Of a stretch of 64,000 bases of DNA, positions 4,022-62,374 are shown in pieces. This DNA comes from Eledone cirrhosa (taxonomy: Eukaryota). Each line of letters starts with the position of its first letter. The stretch's first letter is position 1. The notes beneath the pieces are model-generated. The model ran no database searches and had not been told where the DNA came from. It saw only the letters and a list, made by a program, of their open reading frames with translations. The stretch is from the NCBI GenBank assembly GCA_964016885.1, contig OZ024746.1, forward strand, positions 79,484,001 to 79,548,000, written 5' to 3'. Both the position numbers and the translations under genes were made by a program.

Positions 4022-5953
4022 CACGATAACAACTAACAGCGCTGCGATCGAATGTGGCTTTTTAGCCCAGCCAATGATCTAAAATGTCTTGCACAGAGTC
4101 GGCAACCAAAACATTCACTGGGAATAGCAGGCTGTGGTTGGAGTTCATGTACTTTTGCATGTCGTTTGAGCCCTCATGTTGATTTACATTCTCTACCACA
4201 TGTTTGGCAAGCATGATGAGTAGCATCTCCAACAGCAGCCTGGTAGTCAACCACTGGTCTTACTTTATGACTGCGAAGATGACTTTAGAGTCCAGCTTTG
4301 CTTAAGCAGAGTCTCGCACAGACACTGCATGTCAGCACCATAGGAGGACCCTCTCCGCCTGGAAGTGCAACAGCAATGCCCTTCCTCACATCCCGCTTTA
4401 CTTTCTCGTATGCGATTTGAGATGCCTCAAAGGCAACTTTTCCCTCATATACAGTCTTTCTCCATTTATTACGATCAGCAGCAATATTTTCCCATGTATC
4501 AGCAGAGATGTTAGCGTCTTTCAAAGAGACTTTCAAGGAATCCTTATACCTCTTTTTTGGTTTATGTGGCGGTCGTTTTCCTTTAACTAACTCTCCATAA
4601 AAGAGTTGTTTTGGTATTCTAGAATCCTTCATCCTGGCAAGGTGACCACTCCAACGGAGTCGTTGCTTAAGCACAAGAGCTTCTATACTGTCACCCATAG
4701 AGCTTTCCAAAATCTCCATATCACTGATGTGGTCCCTCCAGTGAACGCCATGGATCCGTCTGAGACACATCTGATGGAAACGCTCCAATTGCTTAAGGTG
4801 GTGTCGATATGTGACCCAGGTCTTGCAGGCATAAAGAAGAGAAGAGAGCACACCTTTACCGTTGTCTTCTTGCATATGTCTCGCCGACCCCAGAGTCGCC
4901 TTTCTAGCTTTCCGAAAGCATCACTTGCTTTCCTAATCCTAAGTGAGATTTCACTATCAAGGTTGCTGTATCGATTGACAGTGCTTCCCAGGTAGACAAA
5001 CTGATCAACCACTCCAAGTCGTTTACCATGCACATAGATATTTGGTTCAGTGTACTGCTTACCAGGGTCAGGTTGGTACATGACGACGGTTTTCTTGAGA
5101 CTGACAGTCAATCCTAGGTCAGTGCAAGCGTCAGAAAATGTATTCAAAATGTGCTGCATATCACTCTATGTGTGCGCTACAAGATCGCAATCATCTTCAT
5201 ACAAGAGGTCTCTTATGATTGATGTAAATATTTTTGTCTTTGCAGCAAAGCGCCTGATGTTAAATATGCTGCCTGAGGTTCGATATCGGATGTAAACACC
5301 ATGCTCGCAATTGCTGAATGCAATACAGAAAACCATTGCAAAGTATATGGCAAACAGGGTCGGTGCTGGAATATCCCCCTGTTTCACTCCATTTTTTACT
5401 GAGATAGGCTCCGACATGTTACCTCCGACATTAACCCAAGCCTTCATGTCGTCTTGGAAAGACCTAACTAAAGCAAGGAACTTATCAGGGCAACCAAGTT
5501 TCTGGAGAACCTTCCATAATGCATTTCTGTTAACAGTATCGAAAGCTTTTGTCAGATCGACAAAAACCTGATACAGATCCAAACCTTGTTCCGTGCACTT
5601 CTCCTGGAGCTGTCTAGCTGAGAAGATCATATCAGTAGTGCCGCGTCCAGCACGAAAACCAGATTGACTTTCAGGGAGATCACAATCTGCAATGTGTGTC
5701 AGCAGACGGTCCAGAAGCACCCTACATAAAACTTTCCCTACGACAGAAAGCAATGATATACCTCTGTAGTTCCCACAATCATTCCTGTTACCCTTTCCCT
5801 TGTACAAGACCACCATTACTGCATCTCTCCAGTCCTCAGGTACGGATTCATTAGCCTATATCCTGCCAAACAAAGAGTGAAGATGTTGCAGGAGTCTCTC
5901 ACCACCATATTGTAGGAGCTCAGCATGTATGCCATCCATATCTGGAGACCTTC
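4022..5953 (-). mobile_element. 5'-truncated, disrupted RTE-clade LINE (RT + C-terminal C2H2)
   Basis: Motifs NYRGISLL, QSGFRAGRGT, FVDLTKAFD, GVKQG, YEDD (degenerate YADD), YLGS, LRWSGH and CSVC..H..H. Has stops and a frameshift, with a (GT)n 3' tail. Confidence 0.93.
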
Positions 5954-13943: not shown

Positions 13944-14013
<70 letters not shown>

Positions 14014-14015
<2 letters not shown>

Positions 14016-14207
14016 CGAAGGAGGTGTGGTAAGGAACCAGATGGACCATAACGCATCAGAGTATTCAATCCTTAGGGTAGTAGAGTGGGTAATAGGAAAA
14101 TGTTTAACCCCGACGGCAGAGCTCAAGCCGTTTAGACGGCTATTTCTGGACTGTCCAGAAATAGCTGTCGAAACGGCTTGAGCTCTGCCGTCGGAGTCAC
14201 ACATTTT

Positions 14208-14210
<3 letters not shown>
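14014..14210. mobile_element. ~200-bp hairpin-ended element in (TA)n, family H copy 1
   Basis: Palindrome 14093-14211 centred on 14152. Homologous to 14469-14645 and 52808-53013. Confidence 0.85.
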
Positions 14211-14271
<61 letters not shown>

Positions 14272-14412: not shown

Positions 14413-14468
<56 letters not shown>

Positions 14469-14469
<1 letters not shown>

Positions 14470-14642
14470 ATAAAGAAGGTGTGGTAAGATACCAGGTGGA
14501 CCATAACGCACCAGAGTACTCGATACTTAGGGTGGTAGAGTGAGTAATAGGAAAAGAATCAGGACCCCGACGGCTGAGCTCCGAATACAGATCTAGCTGT
14601 TGAAACGGCCCGGAGCTCACCCTTCGAAGTCCTAACTCTTTT

Positions 14643-14645
<3 letters not shown>
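14469..14645. mobile_element. Family H copy 2 (degenerate hairpin)
   Basis: Same unique arm (gtgtggtaag..gtggaccataacgcaccagagtact..) and an imperfect terminal inverted repeat. (TA)n on both sides. Confidence 0.8.
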
Positions 14646-15207
<562 letters not shown>

Positions 15208-24597: not shown

Positions 24598-25712
24598 TCT
24601 TTATATATATAAAAGCGAGGATGTGTGTGTAACTGTGTACAACTTTGGATACCTAAGGCTTTTACAATACGTTGCACAGGTCGCTAAGATGGTCACATCA
24701 CAAAAGTTTTTCAAATCGACCCACGTTGAGCAATAAAAAATCGATATCAAAATTATCGGTAGCAAAATTGAAGTTAAGGGAGATAACCACCTTTATTGAC
24801 AGAAACATAAACATCAGATTCATTTAAAGATAAATCACTAATATTATCGTTTGTTTCTTGTTTATTCTTTGTTGCACTTTTAAAGTTAAAAAAACACTTG
24901 TGGTTAAAAACTGTCTCCACTTAGTATTGACGCTGCCATTCTATCTGGATGTGGAAAAGGCGAGGATGTGATAATAACAAATTTAGCCTGACTATATCAG
25001 GCGTGGATACTCCCTTCTCCTTTCGCCGAACCCAATTTCCCCTTCGTGTTGCTTTTGCAATGTCCATAAACAAGTCGCAAGGTCAAACTCTGTCCGTCAC
25101 TGGAATTCACTTGGATGAACCTTGCTTTTCGCACGGACAATTCTACGTTGCCTGCTCACCAGTTGGCAGTAGAGATAATCTCTTTGCGTTTGTTCCGAAA
25201 AGAAAAACAAATAATATCGTCTATCCTGAAGTGCTTTAGTGTTAACAAAAAAACTTATTACAGCTCTGCCTTGACTTCACCTTACTCATTACAAAACATA
25301 CCAATGAATATGTCATGCAGGATATTTTGGATTATAAGTTAAAAATTTAACCATACACAGCAAAGGATGATCTCAAAGAATAGATTTTCTCTTATTCTAC
25401 TCTCATTGTTTTTTTGTTTGTATACAACTCTGCTTTCATTACAACTTTTTGTACTTTAGCAAAACTGCCTGCTTTTTTTACAGATTTGCAACCTGTATTG
25501 TCTTTAATCATTTGTATAACTACATCCTGTTCAGAGTTTTCCTTCATAGTTTTATGTGTACAAACATTGCACTAAATATTCGTTTGCATTAATTATTGAA
25601 GACTTCTGCTTATTTTGACAGGTTGGGGACAAATAATGTTCTTCTTTTACTTCATAGCTGTATATTCTTAGCATAATTTCAAACCCCGGGCAACGCCGGG
25701 TAAATCTGGTAG
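24598..25712 (+). mobile_element. Non-autonomous Helitron with a helicase C-terminal remnant
   Basis: 5' end A|TCTTTATATATATAAAAG. Contains a PIF1-family remnant. 3' hairpin cccgggcaacgccggg is followed by gtag|t, a CTAG variant. Confidence 0.85.
24949..25239 (+). pseudogene. Helitron Rep/Hel PIF1-like helicase C-terminal fragment
   Basis: QFPLRVAFAMSINKSQGQTL..FSHGQFYVACS..TNNIVYPEVL. Confidence 0.9.
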
Positions 25713-27006: not shown

Positions 27007-27073
<67 letters not shown>

Positions 27074-27075
<2 letters not shown>

Positions 27076-27455
27076 ACAAGTAAATATTTTTATAACTGAT
27101 ATAAAGCACTCGACAAGTATTTGGAGTAGATATACGATATTAATAAATGGAAAGTATATTTATAAAACCATATTTATTTCATTATACATATTTCAGGGAT
27201 ACCAAATTAAATTATGGTATGCCTTCATCAGACAAAATACAATATATAACAGTTTTACAAATAAGCTTTGACGTACTCTTTTAAAATGCAATCATTATTT
27301 TGGGAAGCCAAAGGGTACGTCAAAGCTTATTTGTAAAACTGTTATATATTGTATTTTGTCTGATGAAGGCACACCATAATTTAATTTGGTATCCCTGAAA
27401 TATGTATAATGAAATAAATATGGTTTTATAAATAGACTTTCCATTTATTAATATC

Positions 27456-27460
<5 letters not shown>
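27074..27460. mobile_element. Head-to-head inverted element in (TA)n with an HHR-like core in each arm
   Basis: Arms 27131-27280 and 27311-27460 with a 30-bp spacer. CTGATGA AGG..CCT GAAA TATGTA at 27360-27406 (+) and 27185-27231 (-). Stem I is poor. Confidence 0.78.
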
Positions 27461-39049: not shown

Positions 39050-40335
39050 CATTGATGGACAAAACTCCTAAAGCAGGTTGATTAAGACGGTCAACACCTC
39101 ACATCTTATTTTCGGCTTTAGATTGCCCAGGAACACGTTATAAAATATGTCCTTCCTTTTTCTGTGGGTGGAGGTTATAGAGTTCTCTAACGCTGAAAGC
39201 GCTCATCCCATGACCGCACAAAAGGCTGTCAGCTTTCTTGATATTATTGTTGGTTGACTTGGTCTTTCCACTCAGCCATCGAAATGTGCTATAGAGTGTG
39301 CGGTACTCGTGCTGGAACGCGGCCTCCTCGAGATCAGTTGTCATCTTATGCCATTACTTTTCCCTTTCTGTTTTCATTTTCTAGCGGACTTTAATTCTCA
39401 GTGTTAGTCGAAGTCGACCAGCCTTACATTCCTATGTTTTTCCAAGTTGTCCAGGCACTCGTCTGACGGATTTCGCCATGTGAGCTGATGTTTCAGAGGA
39501 TGTTGGAAGTGGGTATTCTTCGATGATCAGGTTGTTAGTTGCGGCGAATGATAGAAAACGGAGCACATTGTCGTTGGTCTCTCCATGCCCAAAATTGCCC
39601 ATGTTAGTCTCCCAACCAGAGCTGTCCAAACAAACGTGGGCTTTGATGTAACCAGCGAGGGTGGTCATTACCGTTTGTGGAATCGGGTCCAGTCTATGTT
39701 GTAGTTGATCGTAGAAATCATCCTTAGTGGTATCTAAGCCGATCTCCGTCGGCGCGTTGGCAGAGATGTTATGCGTTTTCATTGTTCCATTGATGGTGAG
39801 GACCAGCAGGCGATCGGACACTGGTTGAAATATGATGACACTGTGTGAAGCCCCTTACTCAACCATGAATCCGATCCCGGTTTCATGCTTGTCACCACTA
39901 GAATAGTAAAGTGTTAACTGTGTGACGTGGGCGGACGGGTTGATGACCATTGTTCCCGACCCAGTAAGTCACATTTCAGATAGTGCTGCAATCGAAATGC
40001 CACACTTGATAAGTTCTCGGGCGATGATCTCTTTTTAGCCGACTTGATGATCTATTCGAATATTCCAGACAGCCACATAAATGCTTCTCTTCGGCGTGAA
40101 AAGATATTTGGTTTGGTCAGACGTACATTTATCATCAGTATCCTGGGTCCTCAATGCTGATGCATTGGCTGCCCCGGATGCAGAAGCATGAGTAGGTAAA
40201 TTCTGTCCAACACTGCCCATACAGTTTTTGGCCTGGTTTATCCAGTTTCCTGGTTCTGTTTACCTCAACAGGGCAACCACCCTCCTCTTTTTGCAGCCAG
40301 GCTTGGGATCGCCCTTGGTGGAGTTAATCACACCA
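39050..40335 (-). mobile_element. Decayed 5' part (UTR + AP endonuclease) of an RTE-clade LINE
   Basis: VAVWNIR, IAALSE, GIGF, DRL, APT, DDFYDQLQ with stops. The UTR motif cccaagcctgg..gaggagggtgg resembles RTE 5' ends. Confidence 0.8.
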
Positions 40336-42255: not shown

Positions 42256-42470
42256 GAATGCCATGGTTGACGGAGGCTCGGCTCTGTAAGGTATAGTAAT
42301 TTTTAACCGTTAAAACAATTGTAAATTGTTTAAAACTTGAACCAAATTGTTGATAAAGACACCCTCCTCCTCGTGAGAGGGGTCTTTCTGTCTGTTATTT
42401 GGCCCTTCGGGGTTAAATAACCAGTTATTGGGGTTTTGTACCCAAAATTTCATTTTAAACAAAAAACAAC

Positions 42471-44561
42471 ATGGCTACGAAAAAGAAATTTCATACGTCA
42501 CTCCCACTCATTCCGTCTTCTTCTTCCTCAATCATCACTACAGCAGAGAGAAGATTGTCTCTCTCCCTCCCTTCTTTAAATGTGTCTCTCTCCCTCCCTT
42601 CTCTTTCGCAAGTGACGAAAGAAAAGAAAAGTCTCGTGCAAAGCGTGCAAGGTTTCTCCACGACGACGACAGCGACGAAACAGGTGTGCGGGAAATACGA
42701 AAACCCAGTTCATTCGTCTGACGTCAGGAATAATAGCAGTAGCAGCCGTAATAACAACAGCAACAGTGACAATGAAAACAACAGTAGCAGCCGCAACAGC
42801 ATCACCAGCAGCATAAACAACAACAGCATTAGCAGCAGCAACACCAACAACAACCACAGCAACAGCGGCGGAGGCAGTAGTCGTAGTACCTGCAGCAACA
42901 ACAAAAGTACCAGCAGCTCTGACGACAACAACAACAGCAGAGAAAAACCAATCTCATTTGCAGGTATTGCGAAAAACTTGGAAACAATCCTCATAACAAA
43001 TGAGGAATTAGAGGAAGCGAAGAAGATGGTGACAAAGAACGGACACCGAGCAATCTGCAAGGCAGCGGAAAAATTTTTCAAAACCCAAGAGCACTGTACG
43101 GTCACGTACCGTACAGTAAGTACAAAATCCCGTAGGGTGGAAAGAGCCACAGAGGCCCAAATACAAAAAGCCTTGGGGTCTGTGTGGCAGCGGAAAACGC
43201 ACATCACCCGAGGCAAAAAATATGCCACCGTAGACGTACTTTTTGCCACACCCCAGGAGGCAAAGGCCCAATCAGTAGTGACCCTAAGGAGCGAGGAAAT
43301 GGTGTTGGTGCCCTCCTACTGCGGGCAAAAAATTGTGAGGGTCAAACTGACCCACGTCCCACCCGGAATGACCCCTTCTTGGCTGGCCGCGTCTGTCCTC
43401 GTTGAAATCGAGGACAAAACAACTGTACTGCAAGTACAGAAAAAAGTAAGAGAAGATTGGGTCGGCTCCTCCATTGAGATGCTAATCCAAACCAACCAGG
43501 AGTGCATCGAAGCTATCCCGGATGTGATAGACTTCGATAACGGCATTCAACTGCCCATAAGTGTTGAGGGCAAACGCCCGAAATGCTTTCGCTGTGGATC
43601 GAAGACTCACCTCAGGGCCTTCTGCAACGAGAAGACCCTGAGAAAGGAGAAAACCCCCCTCCTTCCGAATCCGGCTCCACGGCTACCGGCAACAGGACAA
43701 GCGGCAACCAGGAACGATAGGTCCGTGGCACCCATACCCACTCCACGGAAATCAAAAACAGCAGCAGCAGTGGAAATATTAACAACAACAACAGCAATAC
43801 CAAATGCAGCTGCAACAGAGACTCCAGTGCAAACATCACCAACAACAAGTGAAAGAGTGGAGCTGGTACCCCTCCCCGACCTCACAGAATCAGACATGGA
43901 GTGTGAGGTGGGAGAGGGATGGCAAAAGGTCGTAAGAAGGCACAAACGCAGAAGCAGCGCATCGTCGCCTTTGAAAAGGGAGGAAAGAAATGAGAAAAGG
44001 GTAAAGTCTACTGCAAAGAGACCCACAGCAGCAACAACACCAACACCATCACCACCCACACTAGCGCCACCATCACCACCGGCGACAACCCCACCGCCAA
44101 CAACACCTTCAACACCACCACCACAAGCACCAACATTGCAAACACAACAACAAAACACACACACCCAGCAACAACGACAAGAAAATAGCAGAACCACACC
44201 CCACCCCCAGAAAAACAAATGCACGGCAATAAATACACACAACAAGAAACTAATGACTTACATAATTGAACACACAGACATTTCACAACAGGACTACATA
44301 ATACCAGCACCAATCAAAACGCCAACTAACATAAGACTGCTAAAAATAGCACAGAAACAATACACAAATATTAAAACGAAATTCCCCAACGCAGTTGGTG
44401 ATTTCAGGGACCTAGGAGGAACCATCAATCGAAGAGTATACTCAGACATTCTCTTAGAAGAGCCGACGACCAGCCGAAGGGACGATTCAACGGTCCCTTC
44501 ACCAGACGATCAAGTGAAAAGGGATGTAAAAACCATCCCTCCTCTACCAAAAGTACGGTAA
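42471..44561 (+). CDS. LINE ORF1p, nucleic-acid-binding protein with a CCHC zinc knuckle
   Basis: 696-aa ORF with CFRCGSKTHLRAFC and low-complexity S/N and P/T tracts. The true start codon is uncertain. Confidence 0.88.
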   Translation: MATKKKFHTSLPLIPSSSSSIITTAERRLSLSLPSLNVSLSLPSLSQVTKEKKSLVQSVQGFSTTTTATKQVCGKYENPVHSSDVRNNSSSSRNNNSNSDNENNSSSRNSITSSINNNSISSSNTNNNHSNSGGGSSRSTCSNNKSTSSSDDNNNSREKPISFAGIAKNLETILITNEELEEAKKMVTKNGHRAICKAAEKFFKTQEHCTVTYRTVSTKSRRVERATEAQIQKALGSVWQRKTHITRGKKYATVDVLFATPQEAKAQSVVTLRSEEMVLVPSYCGQKIVRVKLTHVPPGMTPSWLAASVLVEIEDKTTVLQVQKKVREDWVGSSIEMLIQTNQECIEAIPDVIDFDNGIQLPISVEGKRPKCFRCGSKTHLRAFCNEKTLRKEKTPLLPNPAPRLPATGQAATRNDRSVAPIPTPRKSKTAAAVEILTTTTAIPNAAATETPVQTSPTTSERVELVPLPDLTESDMECEVGEGWQKVVRRHKRRSSASSPLKREERNEKRVKSTAKRPTAATTPTPSPPTLAPPSPPATTPPPTTPSTPPPQAPTLQTQQQNTHTQQQRQENSRTTPHPQKNKCTAINTHNKKLMTYIIEHTDISQQDYIIPAPIKTPTNIRLLKIAQKQYTNIKTKFPNAVGDFRDLGGTINRRVYSDILLEEPTTSRRDDSTVPSPDDQVKRDVKTIPPLPKVR

Positions 44562-44596
44562 GTGGTCTTTCCCATCTTTTCCACTCTATTTTAAAC

Positions 44597-47500
44597 ATGA
44601 CCTCACTCAGAATAGGCAGCATAAATGCGCGTGGCTTGGGGTCGTCATGGAAGCAGGGTCACCTGCTCAACGACCTCAGGTCACTAAACATAGATGTAGT
44701 GGCCATCAGCGAGACCAGAATCTCCGAAGCACGGGCCTTCGCACCGATCTTCGGCGGCTACGATGTGTACGCATCTCCCAGCCGTCCTGGATCGGGTGGA
44801 GGAGTTGCTGTGCTTTTTCGGAGAGGTTTGGATCTCGCCATACGGGCCATCTTCCTGGACCCAGAGGGTAAGCTGGTGGTGCTGGACGTGACCAGCGGAG
44901 ACGGGCAAGCTTTCAGGCTAGTGGCCGTCTATGCCCCGACAGGAGCAGGGCGGCCTGATTTCTTCCGGCGTCTGGAGACCTTTCTTGGAACGTCCCGCTC
45001 TTTAGTGTTAGTGGGCGACTGGAACGGGATCTTAGATGCACGCTGGGACTGTGTGGGATTAGCGGATAGGGGTGGAGGGTGCAAGAGCCTCACCAACCTG
45101 CTCAGGCGTTTTGAACTGTCTGACAGGTACCGATTGGATTTCCCGAATGTGCCAATGTGGACTTGGACAAACCGCATAGGGTCATCCAGATCATATCTAG
45201 ATAGAGTATTTTGTAGGGAAATAGATAGGTCTAGCATAGGCTGTCCACAATTCAAGATAGTCAGCTACACGGACCACAAATTCGTGATCTGTGTGCTTGA
45301 CTTAGATAGGCTTCATAGACGAGGACCCGGCTACTGGAAGCTAAACGCGTCCTTACCAGCGCGCAAGGCCTACAGAGACCGGATTAGCGAACTAGTTAAG
45401 CGGGCGTTGACGGGGGCCATCGTCAACAACAAGTGGTGGTTTGCTCTGAAAAGAGCGATTAGAATAGAATCGATTAGGTTTAGTAAGGCTTTAGCAATAG
45501 AGAAAAATAGAGCAGAGGGAGAACTAGTTAGAAAATTAGACGAGGCGCTTAGCAAAGGCATTGCGACCGACGTGCTTGCGGCGAAATTGGTTCTTGACCA
45601 ATTCTTCAATGCAAAGCACGAAGGCTGCGTTGTCAGAGCTAGGGTGCGTGCTCTCAGACACGAGGGGACGAAAGCCGTTCAATGGGCCCGAGTAGCGGAG
45701 GCGCGTCGTGGCAACAAAGCCACGATCCGGTCTTTGGTGGACCACGACGGGCGCATGCTACTCGATCCCGGGCAAATGTGTGAAGCTTTTCAGCGACACT
45801 TCGCTCAGCTGTTCGGGGGCAGCGGGGGGCCGGGTAGAGGGATGGACTTTAGTGTCTACCTCGACGGACTGCCGCGGCTCTCGGCCACTGAGGCGAAGTG
45901 TTGCGAAAAGCCGATAACAGCCGCTGAAGTACGGGAGGCAATGACTGGCTGCACAAGGGGTAAATCGCCTGGTTTGGATGGTCTGCCCTATGAACTTTAC
46001 GTACAGATGCCAGACTTGTTCGGAGGCCTCTTGGCGGACGTCTACTGCAACTGGCAACAGAACGGGAGAATTCCCAGTTCTGTGAGCCGAGGAGCGGTGG
46101 CACTGCTGAGAAAGGATCCGAACAAGGGGGATAACATAGACAATTTCCGGCCCATAACTCTGCTAAACACAGAGTTTAAGATTTTGGCCAAGGTGCTAGC
46201 AAAGAGGTTGGCGCTTGTCGTTGGTGGTCTGGTGGGAGAGGCGCAGACATGCGCCATTCCCGACAGATCCATCCACGACAACCTCCACCTCATGCGATAC
46301 ATCGTAGAGAGGGTAGCTAGGGAACCTGGCACGGGTGGGTCCTTGATCAATTTAGATCAGTCGAAAGCTTTCGATAGGGTCGACCATCGTTACCTAGCGG
46401 CAGTCCTGAGGGCGGCTGGCTTTGGGCCCGTCTTCAGAGGCTGGATCGCTGCCATGCACAGCGACATCTGCTCTGTGGTGAGAGTGAACGGTCACCTGTC
46501 GGAACCGTTCAACATCATGCGCTCGGTCCGCCAAGGATGTCCCCTCTCGTCCCTCTTGTACGTATTGACTCTCGAGCCATTACTGCACAAACTGGAGACG
46601 TTGAGGGGAGTCCCGCGCGAACTAGGATGCGGAAGATCCGTGTCAGCATATGCGGACGATGTCACCGTAGTGGTGTCGAACGCCAAACACATCGAGGCGA
46701 TCGGCACTACACTAAGAGAATACGAAGCGGTGACAGGAGCAATGATCAACCAGGAAAAGTCAGTGGGCCTGCAGCTCGGCACCTGGAGAGGCAGGTCCAT
46801 GCCGTCCAACAGCGTCGTCGGGCGCTGGACGGACGGACCGGTTAAATTGCTAGGGGTCTGGTTCGGTCCGGACCTCCAGACGGACAAAAACTGGGACGAG
46901 GTGACGAGCAGGGTGGCTTCTCTCACCCAGAAATGGGCGGAGAGGAAGCTATCCCTGAAAGGTCGAGCGGAGGTGGCTAACGCGTACATCGCGTCTGTCA
47001 TCTGCTACCGCCTAACCGTCGTACCTTGTCCTAAGCCTCGCCTGACTGCGCTGGAGCGTTTGCTCTTTCGCTTTTTGTGGAAGGGACGTGCTCCGATGGT
47101 CAGGCGGTCCATCTGTTGTCAACACCCGCTACGTGGAGGGCTGGGCATGCCGTGGCTGATGATGCGCAGGCACGCGCTCAGGCTACGACATCTCCACCTC
47201 TTCCTCGACGGTGATCAGGTGTGGTCGCCGTTTGCTAGACGCGTTTTTCCCCAGCTCGTTTCCTTGACGGAGCTGCAGTCCTGGGTCAAGCGAAGACCGA
47301 GAGGGAGCGCCTGGAGACTGGAATGTCTTCAGGCGCTCACAGCCCTCGACCAATCGGGCAATGTGATCGGTGGAAACTCCACCTCGGCGTTCTATAGAGG
47401 ATTAGTGGAGGGGAAGAGCGACGACGTACTTGGGGAAACTCTAGGCGTCGACGAAAATCAACTAGCCAATCTCTTCGGAAGAACTTTCGGGCCGGGGCCT

Positions 47501-48016
47501 ATGGACAACTTCCAGAAATCTCTGGCCTGGCAGTGCTACCGAGGAGCCTTGCCAGTTCGGGATAAACTCTACAGGCATGGAGGTGCCGTCAGCCGGGCAT
47601 GTCCGAGATGCGCGCAGGGCGACGAAACCGTCCTGCACGCACTCGTCCAGTGTCCGAAAATTGCTGACTTGTGGGTTTATGTCGAACACCTGCTGTCGCG
47701 TTTAGGACGGATCCAGCTATCATCTGAGTCCATCGTGAGGATTGCCCCGCCCTCCTCCTTTAGCCGGGAAGGGCAGGCAGTTTTTATCTGTCTGGTGGCC
47801 ATGGCGAAAGAGATAGTATGGTGGACACGTTTGAAAGGGCTGAAGACGAGCACTTACCTCTTCGGTGATGCTCTGATTGACTTTTTCAAATTTCATTTGA
47901 AAAGGAAAATCAGAGTAGAGAGGGAAGTGCTCTCTTCCCAGCATTTTGTTGAAAGATGGGTGAGAGAAGCAAGAATGGCCCGAGTGAATGGGCCGACTCT
48001 GAGTATATATCTGTAA
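44597..48016 (+). CDS. LINE ORF2p: AP endonuclease + reverse transcriptase + C-terminal Zn finger
   Basis: SINARGL, SET, VYAP, GDWN, YLDR, TDH; KSPGLDG, FRPITLLN, DQSKAFDRV, RQGCPLS, YADD; CPRC..ETVLH....C. Confidence 0.97.
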   Translation: MTSLRIGSINARGLGSSWKQGHLLNDLRSLNIDVVAISETRISEARAFAPIFGGYDVYASPSRPGSGGGVAVLFRRGLDLAIRAIFLDPEGKLVVLDVTSGDGQAFRLVAVYAPTGAGRPDFFRRLETFLGTSRSLVLVGDWNGILDARWDCVGLADRGGGCKSLTNLLRRFELSDRYRLDFPNVPMWTWTNRIGSSRSYLDRVFCREIDRSSIGCPQFKIVSYTDHKFVICVLDLDRLHRRGPGYWKLNASLPARKAYRDRISELVKRALTGAIVNNKWWFALKRAIRIESIRFSKALAIEKNRAEGELVRKLDEALSKGIATDVLAAKLVLDQFFNAKHEGCVVRARVRALRHEGTKAVQWARVAEARRGNKATIRSLVDHDGRMLLDPGQMCEAFQRHFAQLFGGSGGPGRGMDFSVYLDGLPRLSATEAKCCEKPITAAEVREAMTGCTRGKSPGLDGLPYELYVQMPDLFGGLLADVYCNWQQNGRIPSSVSRGAVALLRKDPNKGDNIDNFRPITLLNTEFKILAKVLAKRLALVVGGLVGEAQTCAIPDRSIHDNLHLMRYIVERVAREPGTGGSLINLDQSKAFDRVDHRYLAAVLRAAGFGPVFRGWIAAMHSDICSVVRVNGHLSEPFNIMRSVRQGCPLSSLLYVLTLEPLLHKLETLRGVPRELGCGRSVSAYADDVTVVVSNAKHIEAIGTTLREYEAVTGAMINQEKSVGLQLGTWRGRSMPSNSVVGRWTDGPVKLLGVWFGPDLQTDKNWDEVTSRVASLTQKWAERKLSLKGRAEVANAYIASVICYRLTVVPCPKPRLTALERLLFRFLWKGRAPMVRRSICCQHPLRGGLGMPWLMMRRHALRLRHLHLFLDGDQVWSPFARRVFPQLVSLTELQSWVKRRPRGSAWRLECLQALTALDQSGNVIGGNSTSAFYRGLVEGKSDDVLGETLGVDENQLANLFGRTFGPGPMDNFQKSLAWQCYRGALPVRDKLYRHGGAVSRACPRCAQGDETVLHALVQCPKIADLWVYVEHLLSRLGRIQLSSESIVRIAPPSSFSREGQAVFICLVAMAKEIVWWTRLKGLKTSTYLFGDALIDFFKFHLKRKIRVEREVLSSQHFVERWVREARMARVNGPTLSIYL

Positions 48017-50781: not shown

Positions 50782-50896
<115 letters not shown>

Positions 50897-50920
50897 ATAT
50901 ATATATATATATATGTATAC

Positions 50921-50968
<48 letters not shown>

Positions 50969-51190
50969 AATTAAGTTAAAGATGTACATCCATATATGTA
51001 TACTGAAATACTAGTATGTATATGAATACACACACGTATACATATGTAGATGTACCAAGTTTTTTCACTGGTCACTTTACTGTGAGTGGCCAGCTATTCT
51101 GTATGTAAACACACAGACAAACCGGTTTTTAGAGTCATACTGGTTTTTGAGGAAACACCTTTCCTCTATTCTCCAGAAAGCCAGACAAGG

Positions 51191-51235
51191 AATATTGAAC
51201 TAGTTTCGTTGTTGTTACAACTCATCAGCAATATT
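51191..51235 (-). ncRNA. Minimal type I hammerhead ribozyme
   Basis: Reverse complement of 51826-51870. Confidence 0.9.
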
Positions 51236-51825
51236 TACCTATCTTCCGGCCTCTCTAGAGAATCGTAAAAGCACATATCGTTATATGCTTTTTCTATGAA
51301 AATTAGTAGTGGGCAGACTAATTTGCATAGAGTGTGAGTAAGTACCGGTTCAACGGAGACGATAAAAACAAATAACGAAACGAAATTAAATTTCGTTTCA
51401 TTTGTAACTCACTTTTGTATGACTGACGCTTAAACAATTAAGTTAAAGATGTACATCCATATATGTATACTGAAATACTAGTATGTATATGAATACACAC
51501 ACGTATACATATGTAGATGTACCAAGTTTTTTCACTGGTCACTTTACTGTGAGTGGCCAGCTATTCTGTATGTAAACACACAGACAAACCGGTTTTTAGA
51601 GTCATACTGGTTTTTGAGGAAACACCTTTCCTCTATTCTCCAGAAAGCCAGACAAGGAATATTGAACTAGTTTAATTTCGTTTCGTTATTTGTTTTTATC
51701 GTCTCCGTTGAACCGGTACTTACTCACACTCTATGCAAATTAGTCTGCCCACTACTAATTTTCATAGAAAAAGCATATAACGATATGTGCTTTTACGATT
51801 CTCTAGAGAGGCCGGAAGATAGGTA

Positions 51826-51870
51826 AATATTGCTGATGAGTTGTAACAACAACGAAACTAGTTCAATATT
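51826..51870 (+). ncRNA. Minimal type I hammerhead ribozyme
   Basis: AATATTG CTGATGA GTTGT aaca ACAAC GAAAC TA GTT CAATATT. Perfect 7-bp stem I, 5-bp stem II and palindromic stem III. Predicted cleavage after 51863. Confidence 0.92.
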
Positions 51871-52292
51871 CCTTGTCTGGCTTTCTGGAGAATAGAGGAA
51901 AGGTGTTTCCTCAAAAACCAGTATGACTCTAAAAACCGGTTTGTCTGTGTGTTTACATACAGAATAGCTGGCCACTCACAGTAAAGTGACCAGTGAAAAA
52001 ACTTGGTACATCTACATATGTATACGTGTGTGTATTCATATACATACTAGTATTTCAGTATACATATATGGATGTACATCTTTAACTTAATTGTTTAAGC
52101 GTCAGTCATACAAAAGTGAGTTACAAATGAAACGAAATTTAATTTCGTTTCGTTATTTGTTTTTATCGTCTCCGTTGAACCGGTACTTACTCACACTCTA
52201 TGCAAATTAGTCTGCCCACTACTAATTTTCATAGAAAAAGCATATAACGATATGTGCTTTTACGATTCTCTAGAGAGGCCGGAAGATAGGTA

Positions 52293-52337
52293 AATATTGC
52301 TGATGAGTTGTAACAACAACGAAACTAGTTCAATATT
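52293..52337 (+). ncRNA. Minimal type I hammerhead ribozyme (next tandem copy)
   Basis: Same motif 467 bp downstream. Confidence 0.92.
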
Positions 52338-52626
52338 CCTTGTCTGGCTTTCTGGAGAATAGAGGAAAGGTGTTTCCTCAAAAACCAGTATGACTCTAAA
52401 AACCGGTTTGTCTGTGTGTTTACATACAGAATAGCTGGCCACTCACAGTAAAGTGACCAGTGAAAAAACTTGGTACATCTACATATGTATACGTGTGTGT
52501 ATTCATATACATACTAGTATTTCAGTATACATATATGGATGTACATCTTTAACTTAATTGTTTAAGCGTCAGTCATACAAAAGTGAGTTACAAATGAAAC
52601 GAAATTTAATTTCGTTTCGTTATTTG

Positions 52627-52665
<39 letters not shown>

Positions 52666-52674
52666 CATATATAC

Positions 52675-52734
<60 letters not shown>

Positions 52735-52743
52735 CATATATAC

Positions 52744-52807
<64 letters not shown>

Positions 52808-52810
<3 letters not shown>

Positions 52811-53013
52811 AACGAGTAGGACCCCGACGGCTGAGCTCAAGCCGTTTCGACGGCTAATTCTGGACTAAAATTTTAGTCCAGAATTAGCCGTCGAAACGGC
52901 TTCAGCTCAACCGTCGGGGTCCTACTCGTTCCTATTACACACTCTACTACCCTAAGTATTGAGTACTTTGGTGCGTTATGGTCCACCTGGTTCCTTACTA
53001 CATTTCCTTCTTT
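52808..53013. mobile_element. Family H copy 3 (opposite orientation)
   Basis: Palindrome 52807-52934 centred on 52870/52871. The long arm is homologous to the reverse complement of 14014-14100. Confidence 0.87.
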
Positions 53014-55325: not shown

Positions 55326-55466
55326 ATGTATGTATGATGAACGTACGGATGTATGTATGTATGTAAGTATATATGCACACACATTTTATATATATGTATA
55401 TATATATATATGTATGTATACCTGTATATATATGCGCGTATATATATATATATATATATATATATA

Positions 55467-56405
55467 CAAGTTCGCGTGGCCTCCTGCCTCTTCGGTCTCG
55501 CAATTAGCCTTGGCAAGACTGAGGTCCTGTTCCAGCCTTCACCTGCCTCCGTCACCCATCCTCCTTCCATCTCCATCGGAGGCACCCAGCTAAAGACGGT
55601 GAACGACTTCAAGTACCTCGGCAGTGTCATCAGCAGCGATGGAAGCCTCGACAAGGAGATAAACACCAGGATCTGCAAGGCCAGTCAAACCCTTGGCCGC
55701 CTGAGGACACGCGTCTTGAACCACCACAACATCAGGTAGTCCACCAAGCTCAAGGTGTACAGGGCCGTTGTTTTCACCAACCTCCTCTACGGATGTGAAA
55801 CATGGACCCTGTACAGAAGGCACCTGAAGCAGCTGGAACGGTTCCACATGCGCAGTCTGCGGTTAATCATGCACATCAAATGGCAGGACAAGGTCTCCAA
55901 CCTCGAAGTTCTTGACATGGCTGAGATAACCAGTGTAGAAGCTATGATAGTGAAGAGCCGACTTCGATGGGTGGGACATGTCATCCCGATAGACGATCAC
56001 AGGCTTCCGAAGCAACTGATGTATGGGGAACTCTGTTCGGGGAAACGAAAGCGGGCCAGGCCTTTCAAGAGGTTCAATGTTTGCGGGAAGTGCAGTATCA
56101 ACAACACTGGAATCGCCCCAAAACAACTCGAGTCCCATGCTCAGGACAGGACTGAGTGGCGAGCCCTTACCAGACGCGCCAAGGACTCTTTTGAAGAGAA
56201 GAGACGGGCAGAAGTCACTGATGCCCGTGAAAGGAGGAGAAAGGCATCAACAGCTGCCCCAAGCAACTCCGGTCTCTTCCCCTGCCCCCACTGTCCCCGG
56301 ACCTGCAAGTCAAGGTTCGGCCTCCACAGCCACCTTCGTGCCCACGGCAGACGGGAACTAAAATAAAGAAGATGTCATCATCGTTCACGATGGACAACCA
56401 AGAAG
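55467..56405 (+). mobile_element. 5'-truncated RTE-clade LINE in (TA)n
   Basis: FGLAISLGKTEV, FKYLGS, LLYGCETW, RLRWVGH and CPHC..H...H, with one in-frame stop. Short 3' UTR catcatcgttcacgatgg and an aga tail. Confidence 0.93.
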
Positions 56406-60194: not shown

Positions 60195-60239
<45 letters not shown>

Positions 60240-60273
60240 AGATTTGAATGGATACAGTTTAGTTGAAAGGAAT

Positions 60274-60390
60274 TTATTGACACGTGTTTCTATAACAGTT
60301 ACATAACCTAAAACAGCTATCTACAAACTTTTAGTTATGCAGACATTCAATATTTCAATGTTATTGTTTACTGTCATTTCATCAGAATAA
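60274..60390 (-). ncRNA. Hammerhead ribozyme motif in the inverted pLTR
   Basis: Reverse complement of 62050-62166. Confidence 0.75.
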
Positions 60391-60570
60391 TATTACTGAG
60401 GACCTATTTAGTTTTTATAGAGAATATTAGGAGGAAGGGGTGAAGTTGTTAGAAGAATAGTTGAAGGAGTGGTTTTTCGATAGCAGTGAGAATTCTTGGT
60501 GGCAGTGATTAATTAGATTCCCATCTGTTGTTTTGACATTTTTTATAGAATATATTATTGGTTATTTTTC

Positions 60571-61095
60571 AAAAAAACAGTAGACAATACACTACAGAAC
60601 ATAAATAAACCACACCTAAGTTCGTCCGCAATACTACTCCAGAGAAAACCCAACGTACACAACTGTAACTGCACCTATCCTGACAACTGCCCCCTCGGCA
60701 ATAACTGCCTGGAAAAAAATATTATTTATAAGTGTACCATTAAATCCGGAGGCAACGAGTGGTATTACGTGGGATCAACGGCAACATCGTTTAAATCTCG
60801 ATTGTATAGGCATTCTTACTCAATAAAACACCAGAGCCAAAGAAATGTAACAACTTTAGCAGAAAAAGCTTGGACGCTCAGGGATAGCAATCAAAAGTTT
60901 ACCCTAAAATGGGAAAAATTAGCTAAAACCCAGAGCTTTTCCAGGAGCCAAAATTTCTGCAAATTGTGCAATCTTGAGATTTATTACATAATCACACACA
61001 AGAAGAAACTGCTGAATAACAGAATTGAACGAACATTATTCTGCCGTCACAGAACTAAAACCCTTTTTTCCCACTACAAGCAGAATATTACATAA
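60571..61095 (+). pseudogene. Penelope (Neptune-type) Zn-finger linker + GIY-YIG endonuclease, 5'-truncated but open
   Basis: CNC..CPLGNNC..NIIY..YVGST..FKSR...H..W..CKLCNLE..LLNNR.E....CRH. Confidence 0.9.
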
Positions 61096-61364
61096 AAGAG
61101 GGACATCCCCCAACTATATAAACCTTAATCTAGTTAGAAAAATATAAAAACAATCTCTTCTCAACATATATTAATAACCTTAAATTACCATACTAATAAT
61201 GAAAAGATATGCTGATGAGAATAGGTACAAATATGCGATAATGAATGTGTCTAAAAACGTCCATAAGTATGTATATATATGTGAAAATGTATATAAATAA
61301 GTAAATATATATATATGTTTGATGTGTATAGTTAGATGTAAGTGTATTCATGTATTAAAGTGCT

Positions 61365-61401
<37 letters not shown>

Positions 61402-61424
61402 ATATGTGTGTATATATGTATGTG

Positions 61425-61457
<33 letters not shown>

Positions 61458-62049
61458 GTATATGTATATATGTATATATATATATGTGTATGTATGTATG
61501 TGTATATGGATGTGTATGTATGTGTATGTGTGTACACATGGACTAGAGTATGTATGTATATATGTGTGTGTCTATACGTGTGTATATATAAAGATAAGTT
61601 GAGTATGAAAATGTATACACATGAGCGCGTATGTATGTACATGAATACATGTGTGTATATATATGTGTATGCATGTGTATATATATGTAAGTATGAATAT
61701 GTGAATTGTGAGTATATGTATTTTGTAGAGGTGTGCAAATATATTTGTGTGTGAATGCGTGGGTGAAAGAATACGTACACTTGAAAGAAAAATTTAAGTC
61801 TGAATGTTAAGTGCAAACACAAAACCAACCACGCATATCTTTACTATCTCTAATCCTTCTATAGATTTAGAAAAATAACCAATAATATATTCTATAAAAA
61901 ATGTCAAAACAACAGATGGGAATCTAATTAATCACTGCCACCAAGAATTCTCACTGCTATCGAAAAACCACTCCTTCAACTATTCTTCTAACAACTTCAC
62001 CCCTTCCTCCTAATATTCTCTATAAAAACTAAATAGGTCCTCAGTAATA

Positions 62050-62166
62050 TTATTCTGATGAAATGACAGTAAACAATAACATTGAAATATTGAATGTCTG
62101 CATAACTAAAAGTTTGTAGATAGCTGTTTTAGGTTATGTAACTGTTATAGAAACACGTGTCAATAA
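62050..62166 (+). ncRNA. Hammerhead ribozyme motif with long stem II
   Basis: TTATT CTGATGA aATGACAGT..ACTGTTATa GAAAC ACGT GTC AATAA, with an A-A at the base of stem II. Confidence 0.77.
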
Positions 62167-62313
62167 ATTCCTTTCAACTAAACTGTATCCATTCAAATCT
62201 TTCTATTTTTCTCCGGATTACTTTTGGAACTACAACTGGAACCGTCGAGCAAACTCTACGTGAGCTGATAATCTACTGTGTGTAATATTTATATTACAAC
62301 ACAACGGAAAAAA

Positions 62314-62374
<61 letters not shown>

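Follow-up and report, generated by a model that had tools for sequence, protein, structure and literature searches.

The window analysed here, a stretch of 64,000 nucleotides from Eledone cirrhosa (GCA_964016885.1, contig OZ024746.1, forward-strand positions 79,484,001 to 79,548,000), contains an element built from two ‘arms’ that lie head-to-head inside a (TA)n repeat; exact-match mapping shows that the copies of its repeating unit are 100% identical and follow each other with a period of 467 bp (Table 1). A previous sequence-only reading of this DNA had already described identical 467-bp units in a (TA)n setting, and both of these points hold, the period and identity being as stated and (TA)n tracts flanking the element on both sides. 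The same reading had, however, placed about 3.5 units in a single tandem, a description that we replace here: the left arm (710 bp) is inverted relative to the right arm (963 bp). Throughout, positions within the unit are numbered from the first base past the predicted ribozyme cleavage site, such that window position 51864 corresponds to unit position 1.

Table 1. Features of the two-armed element and its flanks, in window coordinates
Feature	Position	Strand	Description
Left (TA)n target tract	50782-50963	.	Target duplication unreadable in pure TA
Left arm	50964-51673	-	710 bp, 1.52 units, inverted; exact-match mapping
Left arm, course in ribozyme sense			Unit position 459 to position 234; terminates at site A against (TA)n
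Site A, at left end	50964-50969	-	Unit positions 229-234; putative start of reverse transcription; basis: end clustering in 62 insertions
Hammerhead in inverted arm	51191-51235	-	Predicted cleavage at 51198
Junction	51671-51673	.	Two 5′ ends head-to-head; 3-base microhomology TTT fits both arms
Right arm	51671-52633	+	963 bp, 2.06 units; exact-match mapping
Right arm, course			Unit position 275 to position 303; terminates at site B against (TA)n
Hammerhead 1	51826-51870	+	Predicted cleavage after 51863; motif scan, Rfam HH9, sister-family covariation
One unit, cleavage site to cleavage site	51864-52330	+	467 nt, 35% GC; predicted monomer or circle
Hammerhead 2	52293-52337	+	Predicted cleavage after 52330
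‘Tail’ between site A and site B	52565-52633	+	About 70 nt
Hairpin in tail	52593-52621	+	13 pairs
Site B	52632-52633	+	Right end of element
Right (TA)n target tract	52634-52808	.

The unit has no credible open reading frame, in agreement with the sequence-only reading; its longest ATG-started frame spans 27–30 amino acids, and a comparison with 79 Penelope-type proteins returned no match below an E-value of 0.7. The arrays are without an LTR-flanked interior and have a GC content below 50%; no tRNA gene or module was found in the element, nor any promoter by a bacterial promoter scan, the underlying bacterial model not being apt for an animal element. The unit pairs strongly with itself: the minimum free energy (MFE) of its circular form is -149.3 kcal/mol, a z-score of -10.3 against 60 dinucleotide shuffles, with the antisense strand giving a folding z-score of -6.8. 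An earlier picture of a hairpin-rich unit is borne out by this self-pairing, but several of the hairpins listed in its support were read from the inverted arm: three of the six pairs (tggtcact.., aaaagcacat.. and ctatgaaaattagt..), together with the second half of another (actggttt, the 3′ half), are found in their listed form in that arm alone, and had therefore been read on the strand opposite the ribozyme.

Three complete minimal type I hammerhead motifs are present, two on the forward strand and one on the reverse, with half of another located at the junction. Each consists of a 7-bp stem I, the catalytic core, a 5-bp stem II and a stem III formed from the palindrome ACTAGT, together with a GUU cleavage triplet—a detail missing from the previous account of the ribozyme, which assigned one minimal hammerhead to each unit with cleavage at 51863 and 52330, the same sites as predicted by our motif scan. 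Hammerheads with a GUU triplet may cleave less well, or more slowly. On the unit itself, the motif scan places the hammerhead on one strand only. All three copies are matched by the Rfam HH9 model (E = 2.1e-7), which scores them at 37.7 bits where its gathering score is 52; at the gathering level Rfam finds nothing in the 64-kb window, and we set aside the miRNA and other low-scoring Rfam matches as hairpin or TA artefacts. The motif is not a product of chance, since the exact 43-nt hammerhead returns 4,872 matches in the genome as against 0 for the reversed control. A comparison with sister families (see below) shows that the core is invariant and that 7 of the 16 stem pairs have changed on both sides, a figure drawn from some three lineages only, not ten.

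Folding predictions suggest how such a motif might act. For a two-unit construct (51800–52360), the predicted MFE structure resembles a double hammerhead, in which the extended stem III forms and U17 is also predicted to pair with an A of the core; the predicted fold of the monomer circle contains stems I and II but lacks stem III. Transcripts of the unit may cleave themselves. Nothing here points to RNA-to-RNA replication, and the label of ‘replicon’ previously attached to the unit finds no support.

At the DNA level, the sequence-only description of a non-coding, hammerhead-bearing, dispersed and recently mobile tandem unit is upheld. We arrive at a rough estimate of about 1,300 insertions, dispersed over many chromosomes, with up to 13 units in a single arm and up to 23 in both arms together. 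Two sets of loci were studied. Set 1, drawn from 150 of 278 matches (39 of 121 candidates scored), provided 35 places—the window and 34 further stretches—and 36 insertions; having been selected by best match to the window, it is biased towards young, long copies. Set 2 comprised the 100 matches that come first, by order along one contig, among the 4,872, and provided 27 places of which 26 were new, bringing the number of insertions examined across both sets to 62. The unit is also contained in six sequencing runs from four studies, represented by contigs only, none of them listed as RNA and with the kind of run unrecorded. Near-identical units, each with a haplotype of its own, occur in runs X4, X5 and X6, which carry three further organism labels (run kind again unrecorded); the family is therefore not confined to the assembly from which the window is taken. 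A 497-nt closed contig in X4 was considered as a sign of expression and rejected, as tandem DNA would give the same contig as a circle.

When the outer ends of the arms are placed on the unit, 105 of 108 fall at one of two positions: site A (unit positions 228–235) or site B (296–304), approximately 70 nt apart. These outer ends are the 3′ ends in the sense of the ribozyme, and nearly always abut TA; four of the ends (L031, L034, L047b and L050) were read by eye across a mismatch. Of the 62 insertions, 46 are two-armed, carrying an inverted arm head-to-head with the other, and in 42 of these one arm terminates at A and the other at B, in either order. A single insertion (L043) has two A ends, none has two B ends, and in the remaining three (L032, L055 and L130) one end is unplaceable; among the 43 two-armed insertions where both ends can be placed, the A+B combination thus occurs 42 times (binomial p = 1e-11). 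All 16 one-armed insertions likewise terminate at A or B, and in three of them the flank retains 12–15 nt of the A end in inverted orientation (identified by eye). The inner 5′ ends are evenly scattered round the unit (Kolmogorov–Smirnov p = 0.39). It had been suggested that genomic copies be checked for circular permutation; we see that they are not freely permuted: scatter is confined to the 5′ ends, and the 3′ ends keep to two fixed sites.

The same two ends appear in sequencing run X1, where loose ends in TA are found at unit positions 234 and 303, and which is almost fixed for a variant that is absent from the window unit and from most of the set 1 loci. Target duplications of 12–13 bp could be read at 8 of 35 loci scanned (L035, L038, L042, L045, L047, L052, L062 and L063), being unreadable or absent at the others. 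These observations leave next to no room for an artefact of assembly or sequencing (fold-back chimeras, or repeats polished together), or for a plain satellite spread by DNA recombination: near-identical inverted arms are certainly difficult to assemble, a number of the loci are on small contigs and one (L031) shows indel noise, but against both processes stand the reciprocal fixed ends, target duplications set in complex flanks, haplotypes private to a locus, the dispersal of the family over many chromosomes, and an independent run in which both ends recur.

In none of the 62 insertions does the 5′ end of an arm lead on into an ORF, as judged by tblastn with a single query protein from the Hydra clade; at the DNA level, the unit is thus not attached to a Penelope ORF. 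Where we inspected nearby ORF matches (in L032, L129 and L057), these belong to other insertions that occupy the TA tract alongside the retrozyme, and in L032 the retrozyme and its neighbour abut each other tail to tail. It could be argued that the element is nevertheless nothing but an ordinary pLTR stump, left by an autonomous Penelope-like element and without a life of its own, given that it displays every hallmark of a pLTR—minimal hammerhead, tail and inverted arm—and that in L057 one sister-family copy is joined directly to a Hydra-type element at the latter's 3′ end. We consider this highly improbable: no insertion enters an ORF, the unit leads back into itself through as many as 13 turns, and the L057 join is unique, with 1 of 41 matches running past it and the junction pattern returning 1 match in the genome.

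How the two arms of an insertion relate to each other can be judged from the variants that they carry. Across the 16 two-armed loci of set 2, arms of the same locus differ by 0.56% on average, as against 3.2% between loci, and at 12 of the 16 no foreign arm is as close; the 27 loci of set 1 (with L062 left out for its short overlap) follow the same trend with less power, at 0.24% and 0.75% respectively. At L144 the arms show 0 differences over 358 positions compared to a median of 19, and the 10 differences between the arms of L035 are probably due to misalignment in a hairpin. Private variants make the point more directly. The 20 units of L136 all share, across both arms, three private substitutions, as part of a private haplotype that includes a changed unit length and that is broken by no singleton; L061 carries two private variants (in 17/17 and 16/16 units), with L048 and L138 carrying one each (in 10/10 and 8/8 units). 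More generally, 27 of the 34 arrays with at least four copies have no variant that segregates in at least two copies (singletons aside), representing 18 haplotypes; the other seven are mosaic, one of which, L035, is probably an artefact of alignment.

Together, reciprocal ends and shared haplotypes suggest, as read from the sequences, that both arms were probably primed at two sites on one template. Other routes to an inverted arm have nonetheless to be weighed. In the twin priming of L1 elements, both target strands prime on one RNA, generating a 5′ inversion. An event of that type, or else fold-back self-priming in the manner of the antisense self-priming put forward for head-to-head Penelope repeats (Arkhipova et al. 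2013; PMC3846280), combined with endonuclease trimming as the source of the difference in tail, would be an alternative, and fold-back would also account for identical arms. With junctions compiled by hand for 43 insertions (a table that omits L043, L055 and L130 but includes L032), we find that near-palindromic junctions, with inner ends within 15 nt of each other, do occur more often than expected (7/43 versus 2.9, p = 0.02), and fold-back may have operated at occasional insertions. The other 36 junctions are non-palindromic, however, with offsets of up to 232 nt, and in 17 of the 43 the longer arm is the one without the tail, by up to several kb, which speaks against this alternative. L1-type priming, for its part, predicts an arm starting beside the priming site of the other, an arrangement seen in 7/43 insertions as against 6.9 by permutation. 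As a general origin for the inverted arm we therefore regard these routes as improbable.

Returning to two-site priming on one template, we see that the copies run seamlessly through the predicted cleavage site: exact length is kept in 318 of 319 passes, and inner ends fall within 10 nt of the site in 4 of 86 cases, with 3.9 expected. It follows that the template was continuous across the cleavage site, being either a closed circle or an uncut multimer; at the DNA level this is what the circular template of the sequence-only reading predicts. Template jumping between cleaved linear monomers was also considered, but is disfavoured by the same figures, as ends do not accumulate at the cleavage site and all but one of the passages through it are exact.

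A serious competitor to the circle is a linear multimer transcript left uncleaved, on which two-site priming would begin 70 nt apart within a single unit, with both arms copied from the units upstream of it, the homogeneity of the arrays arising through later local unequal exchange and the hammerhead being weak or dispensable. Seamless junctions fit this equally well, and the GUU triplet is consistent with it, as are the dispensability of the hammerhead of an anole element in vitro (PMC11167929) and the report that eight of nine Xenopus dimers gave no cleavage (Li, Clavereau and Pollet 2026; bioRxiv 10.64898/2026.07.22.740005). Some arrays, moreover, are periodic mosaics: in L149 (2338–7606) one arm has a variant at every third unit that the other arm lacks, and in L145 (2311–4524), L033 and L036 a variant alternates every two units. 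Such periodic variants suggest that arrays can change or grow after insertion, that templates are multimeric, or that the assembly is in error. Set against these points, the 18 haplotypes fixed across whole arrays would need repeated bottlenecks of one unit followed by re-expansion; L136, with its 20 units, private haplotype and lack of singletons, would require both arms to have expanded independently before any mutation took place; and the core and stems of the hammerhead are conserved, with covariation, across families that are 71% alike. We consequently think the linear multimer rather unlikely, though to be taken seriously, and lean towards a covalent circle as the template.

Seen as a whole, the element is, with high confidence, a non-autonomous retrozyme of the Penelope type, a young and abundant member of the animal non-LTR retrozymes. 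With rather less assurance, we favour a full cycle for it, proposed here, for which cleavage, circles, a dimer mechanism and a helper protein are each inferred. The arrays would be transcribed in the sense of the ribozyme; adjacent minimal hammerheads would pair with each other via their palindromic stem III and release 467-nt monomers, which a host ligase would circularise. A dimeric Penelope-like RT/GIY-YIG protein, probably of the Hydra clade, would then bind the A–B region of one RNA and nick the two (TA)n strands some 12–13 nt apart, allowing one nicked strand to prime at A and the other at B of the same template—a putative mechanism for a pattern that we observe directly. Both polymerases would move 5′-wards with strand displacement, past the cleavage site and round again, until stopping at random, whereupon the two cDNA ends would be joined by microhomology, leading to the head-to-head arms, with a 70-nt tail on one of them only, that are seen in the genome. 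Some long arrays would have been altered further after insertion.

Stated in its most specific form, this means that a protein dimer and one 467-nt RNA circle would together perform two simultaneous rolling-circle reverse transcriptions from two fixed sites, of up to ~12 turns each, and that reciprocal two-site priming would explain in general how Penelope-like elements come by their inverted arm and one-sided tail; we offer this as a tentative proposal, about which some doubt should prevail. An inverted arm and one-sided tail are also found in three unrelated element types of the window.

Much of this can be set against published systems. Animal non-LTR retrozymes have been defined, and their circles shown in coral, mussel and axolotl, by Cervera and de la Pena (2020; PMC7229834); Penelope-like elements are put forward as their likely helpers, with a circle expected to give multi-unit cDNA (PMC7229834, PMC7761336), and, according to PMC7761336, animal retrozymes carry no motif by which the helper could be recognised. 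Retrozymes of frogs have been linked to pLTRs, with local amplification of arrays favoured and one of nine dimers cleaved; the same preprint (bioRxiv 10.64898/2026.07.22.740005) proposes that retrozymes are non-autonomous Penelope derivatives, and describes the mechanism by which they move as still to be elucidated. Like animal non-LTR retrozymes, the family described here consists of tandemly repeated units, non-coding and a few hundred bp long, in each of which there is a single type I hammerhead; it has a GC content below 50%, no LTR, thousands of dispersed copies and a strongly self-paired unit, duplicates more than 4 bp of its target and co-occurs with Penelope-like elements; a weak stem III that should need dimers is shared with the axolotl Amex1 retrozyme family. 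It differs from them in having a hammerhead of minimal form with a GUU triplet, and its 467-nt unit lies slightly above the range first given for retrozymes (150–450 bp) but within the 51–972 bp of Li et al. Furthermore, animal retrozyme circles have been demonstrated (PMC7229834), whereas the present family is known from DNA alone.

The resemblance to endonuclease-bearing Penelope-like elements, those of the Hydra clade especially, is equally close. Penelope-like elements possess an inverted copy and a one-sided tail, and have (TA)n as their target (Craig et al., PMC8557442), and the minimal hammerhead, along with the idea that it acts as a dimer, has been set out previously (PMC4209133). Head-to-head repeats have been ascribed to antisense self-priming, in work that also demonstrates pLTR-driven mobilisation in trans (Arkhipova et al., PMC3846280). 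In vitro, a Penelope-like protein, predicted to dimerise, nicks and extends both strands from two internal RNA starts that delimit the tail, cleavage not being needed (Frangieh et al., PMC11167929). Shared with such elements are an inverted, 5′-truncated copy at the head, an optional tail at one end, partial tandems, a minimal hammerhead, a preference for (TA)n, a target duplication of ~10 bp and two tail-delimiting internal starts of reverse transcription. Unlike them, the retrozyme has no ORF and a unit that repeats itself up to 13 times per arm; its tail is ~70 nt long as compared to 30–40 bp, and we saw no clear sequence in common with the Penelope-like families that we compared. The published explanations for inverted arm and tail (antisense self-priming, endonuclease resolution) also differ from the reciprocal two-site priming suggested here. 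L1 twin priming is similar in that both target strands prime on one RNA and the 5′ portion is inverted, but in the retrozyme both starts are fixed and internal, each arm runs over the same sequence again and again, and the second start does not set the place of the junction next to it.

The class of element, and each of its hallmarks, is thus already known. Inverted arms, two fixed 3′ ends and (TA)n targeting are, however, not described for retrozymes in the sections of PMC7229834 and bioRxiv 10.64898/2026.07.22.740005 that we drew upon. In the literature searched, represented in part by excerpts, we did not find the Penelope end signature on a retrozyme, or a strictly reciprocal use of two starts on one template; nor did we find a paper stating the two-site or rolling-circle priming reading in the open literature, subscription journals being outside coverage.

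At 60234–62321 in the window lies a two-armed copy of a young autonomous Penelope-like element, of which the endonuclease end is present here (60570–61095); its full ORF, found elsewhere in the genome, encodes 785 amino acids, and many copies are 99–100% identical. The ORF contains the motifs RWK, DKT and CxCX5C, which are those given for the Hydra clade (PMC8557442, section 11). Pfam has no family for the ORF, and we base its assignment as Hydra-type on these motifs and on 78 unnamed homologues. This element has two fixed ends of its own, 115 nt apart; of 14 loci examined, nine show both ends, and all nine use them reciprocally. Among the matches listed, it shares with the retrozyme unit low-complexity similarity only and no clear sequence; it therefore illustrates the mechanism and is at most a putative partner. 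Elements in eight neighbouring stretches, considered as sources of a partner pLTR, similarly share just low-complexity similarity with the unit among the matches listed, and a search with the 131-nt A–B region as query gave family copies only, with 40 of 492 candidates scored.

A pattern for related hammerheads, with 1,259 matches in the genome, was also followed as a lead to a partner and gave a sister retrozyme family instead. The eight pattern loci inspected belong to older sister families, with units of ~414–424 nt that are 71% alike over 406 columns; these families (e.g. L173–L178 and L164:4640–5278) have the same two ends and a rebuilt stem II, one sub-family having the triplet GUA. The joined copy in L057 (990–2670) consists of a 5′-truncated Hydra-type element, the 3′ end of which meets a truncated sister unit without intervening TA. 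As a single chimera it was rejected as a partner pLTR, and is at most a hint of a template switch.

Mobilisation of animal retrozymes is still at the stage of a proposal, a step that this family makes testable; the origin of the Penelope inverted arm and one-sided tail is likewise unsettled. The genome provides roughly 1,300 near-identical insertions that bear a Penelope signature with no ORF attached, and in those that we examined the ends are placed with single-base precision and both arms can be traced, through their haplotypes, to one template. Intact, young Penelope-like ORFs are available from the same genome, such that a model of circle and dimer can be tested directly in vitro. If that reading is true, the insertions would represent a genomic record of a step so far only proposed in the retrozyme model, and a compact RNA signal with two sites, able to load a circle onto an RT-endonuclease, would be useful for RNA-templated gene insertion.

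Several other elements share the window. At 27073–27458 there is a further head-to-head element in (TA)n, with one hammerhead-like motif per arm, at 27360–27408 (forward strand) and 27231–27183 (reverse strand), and a tail of ~68 nt on one arm; related motifs adjoin Penelope-like ORFs in L165 and L167. A third, short head-to-head family, again in (TA)n and with one arm ~78 nt longer than the other, is represented at 52808–53013, 14007–14218 and ~14464–14650, and also adjoins L041 and L055; a motif scan of the truncated window copies found no hammerhead. A long non-LTR retrotransposon with two ORFs occupies 42459–48016 and is apparently intact, its open frames spanning 700 and 1,204 amino acids, the larger with endonuclease- and RT-like motifs recognisable by eye. 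Fragments at 4285–5855 (reverse strand), 55341–56366 (forward strand) and 39432–39854 (reverse strand) resemble what we take to be ORFs of RTE-type LINEs, and a short frame at 24931–25239 presumably resembles the end of a Helitron-type helicase.
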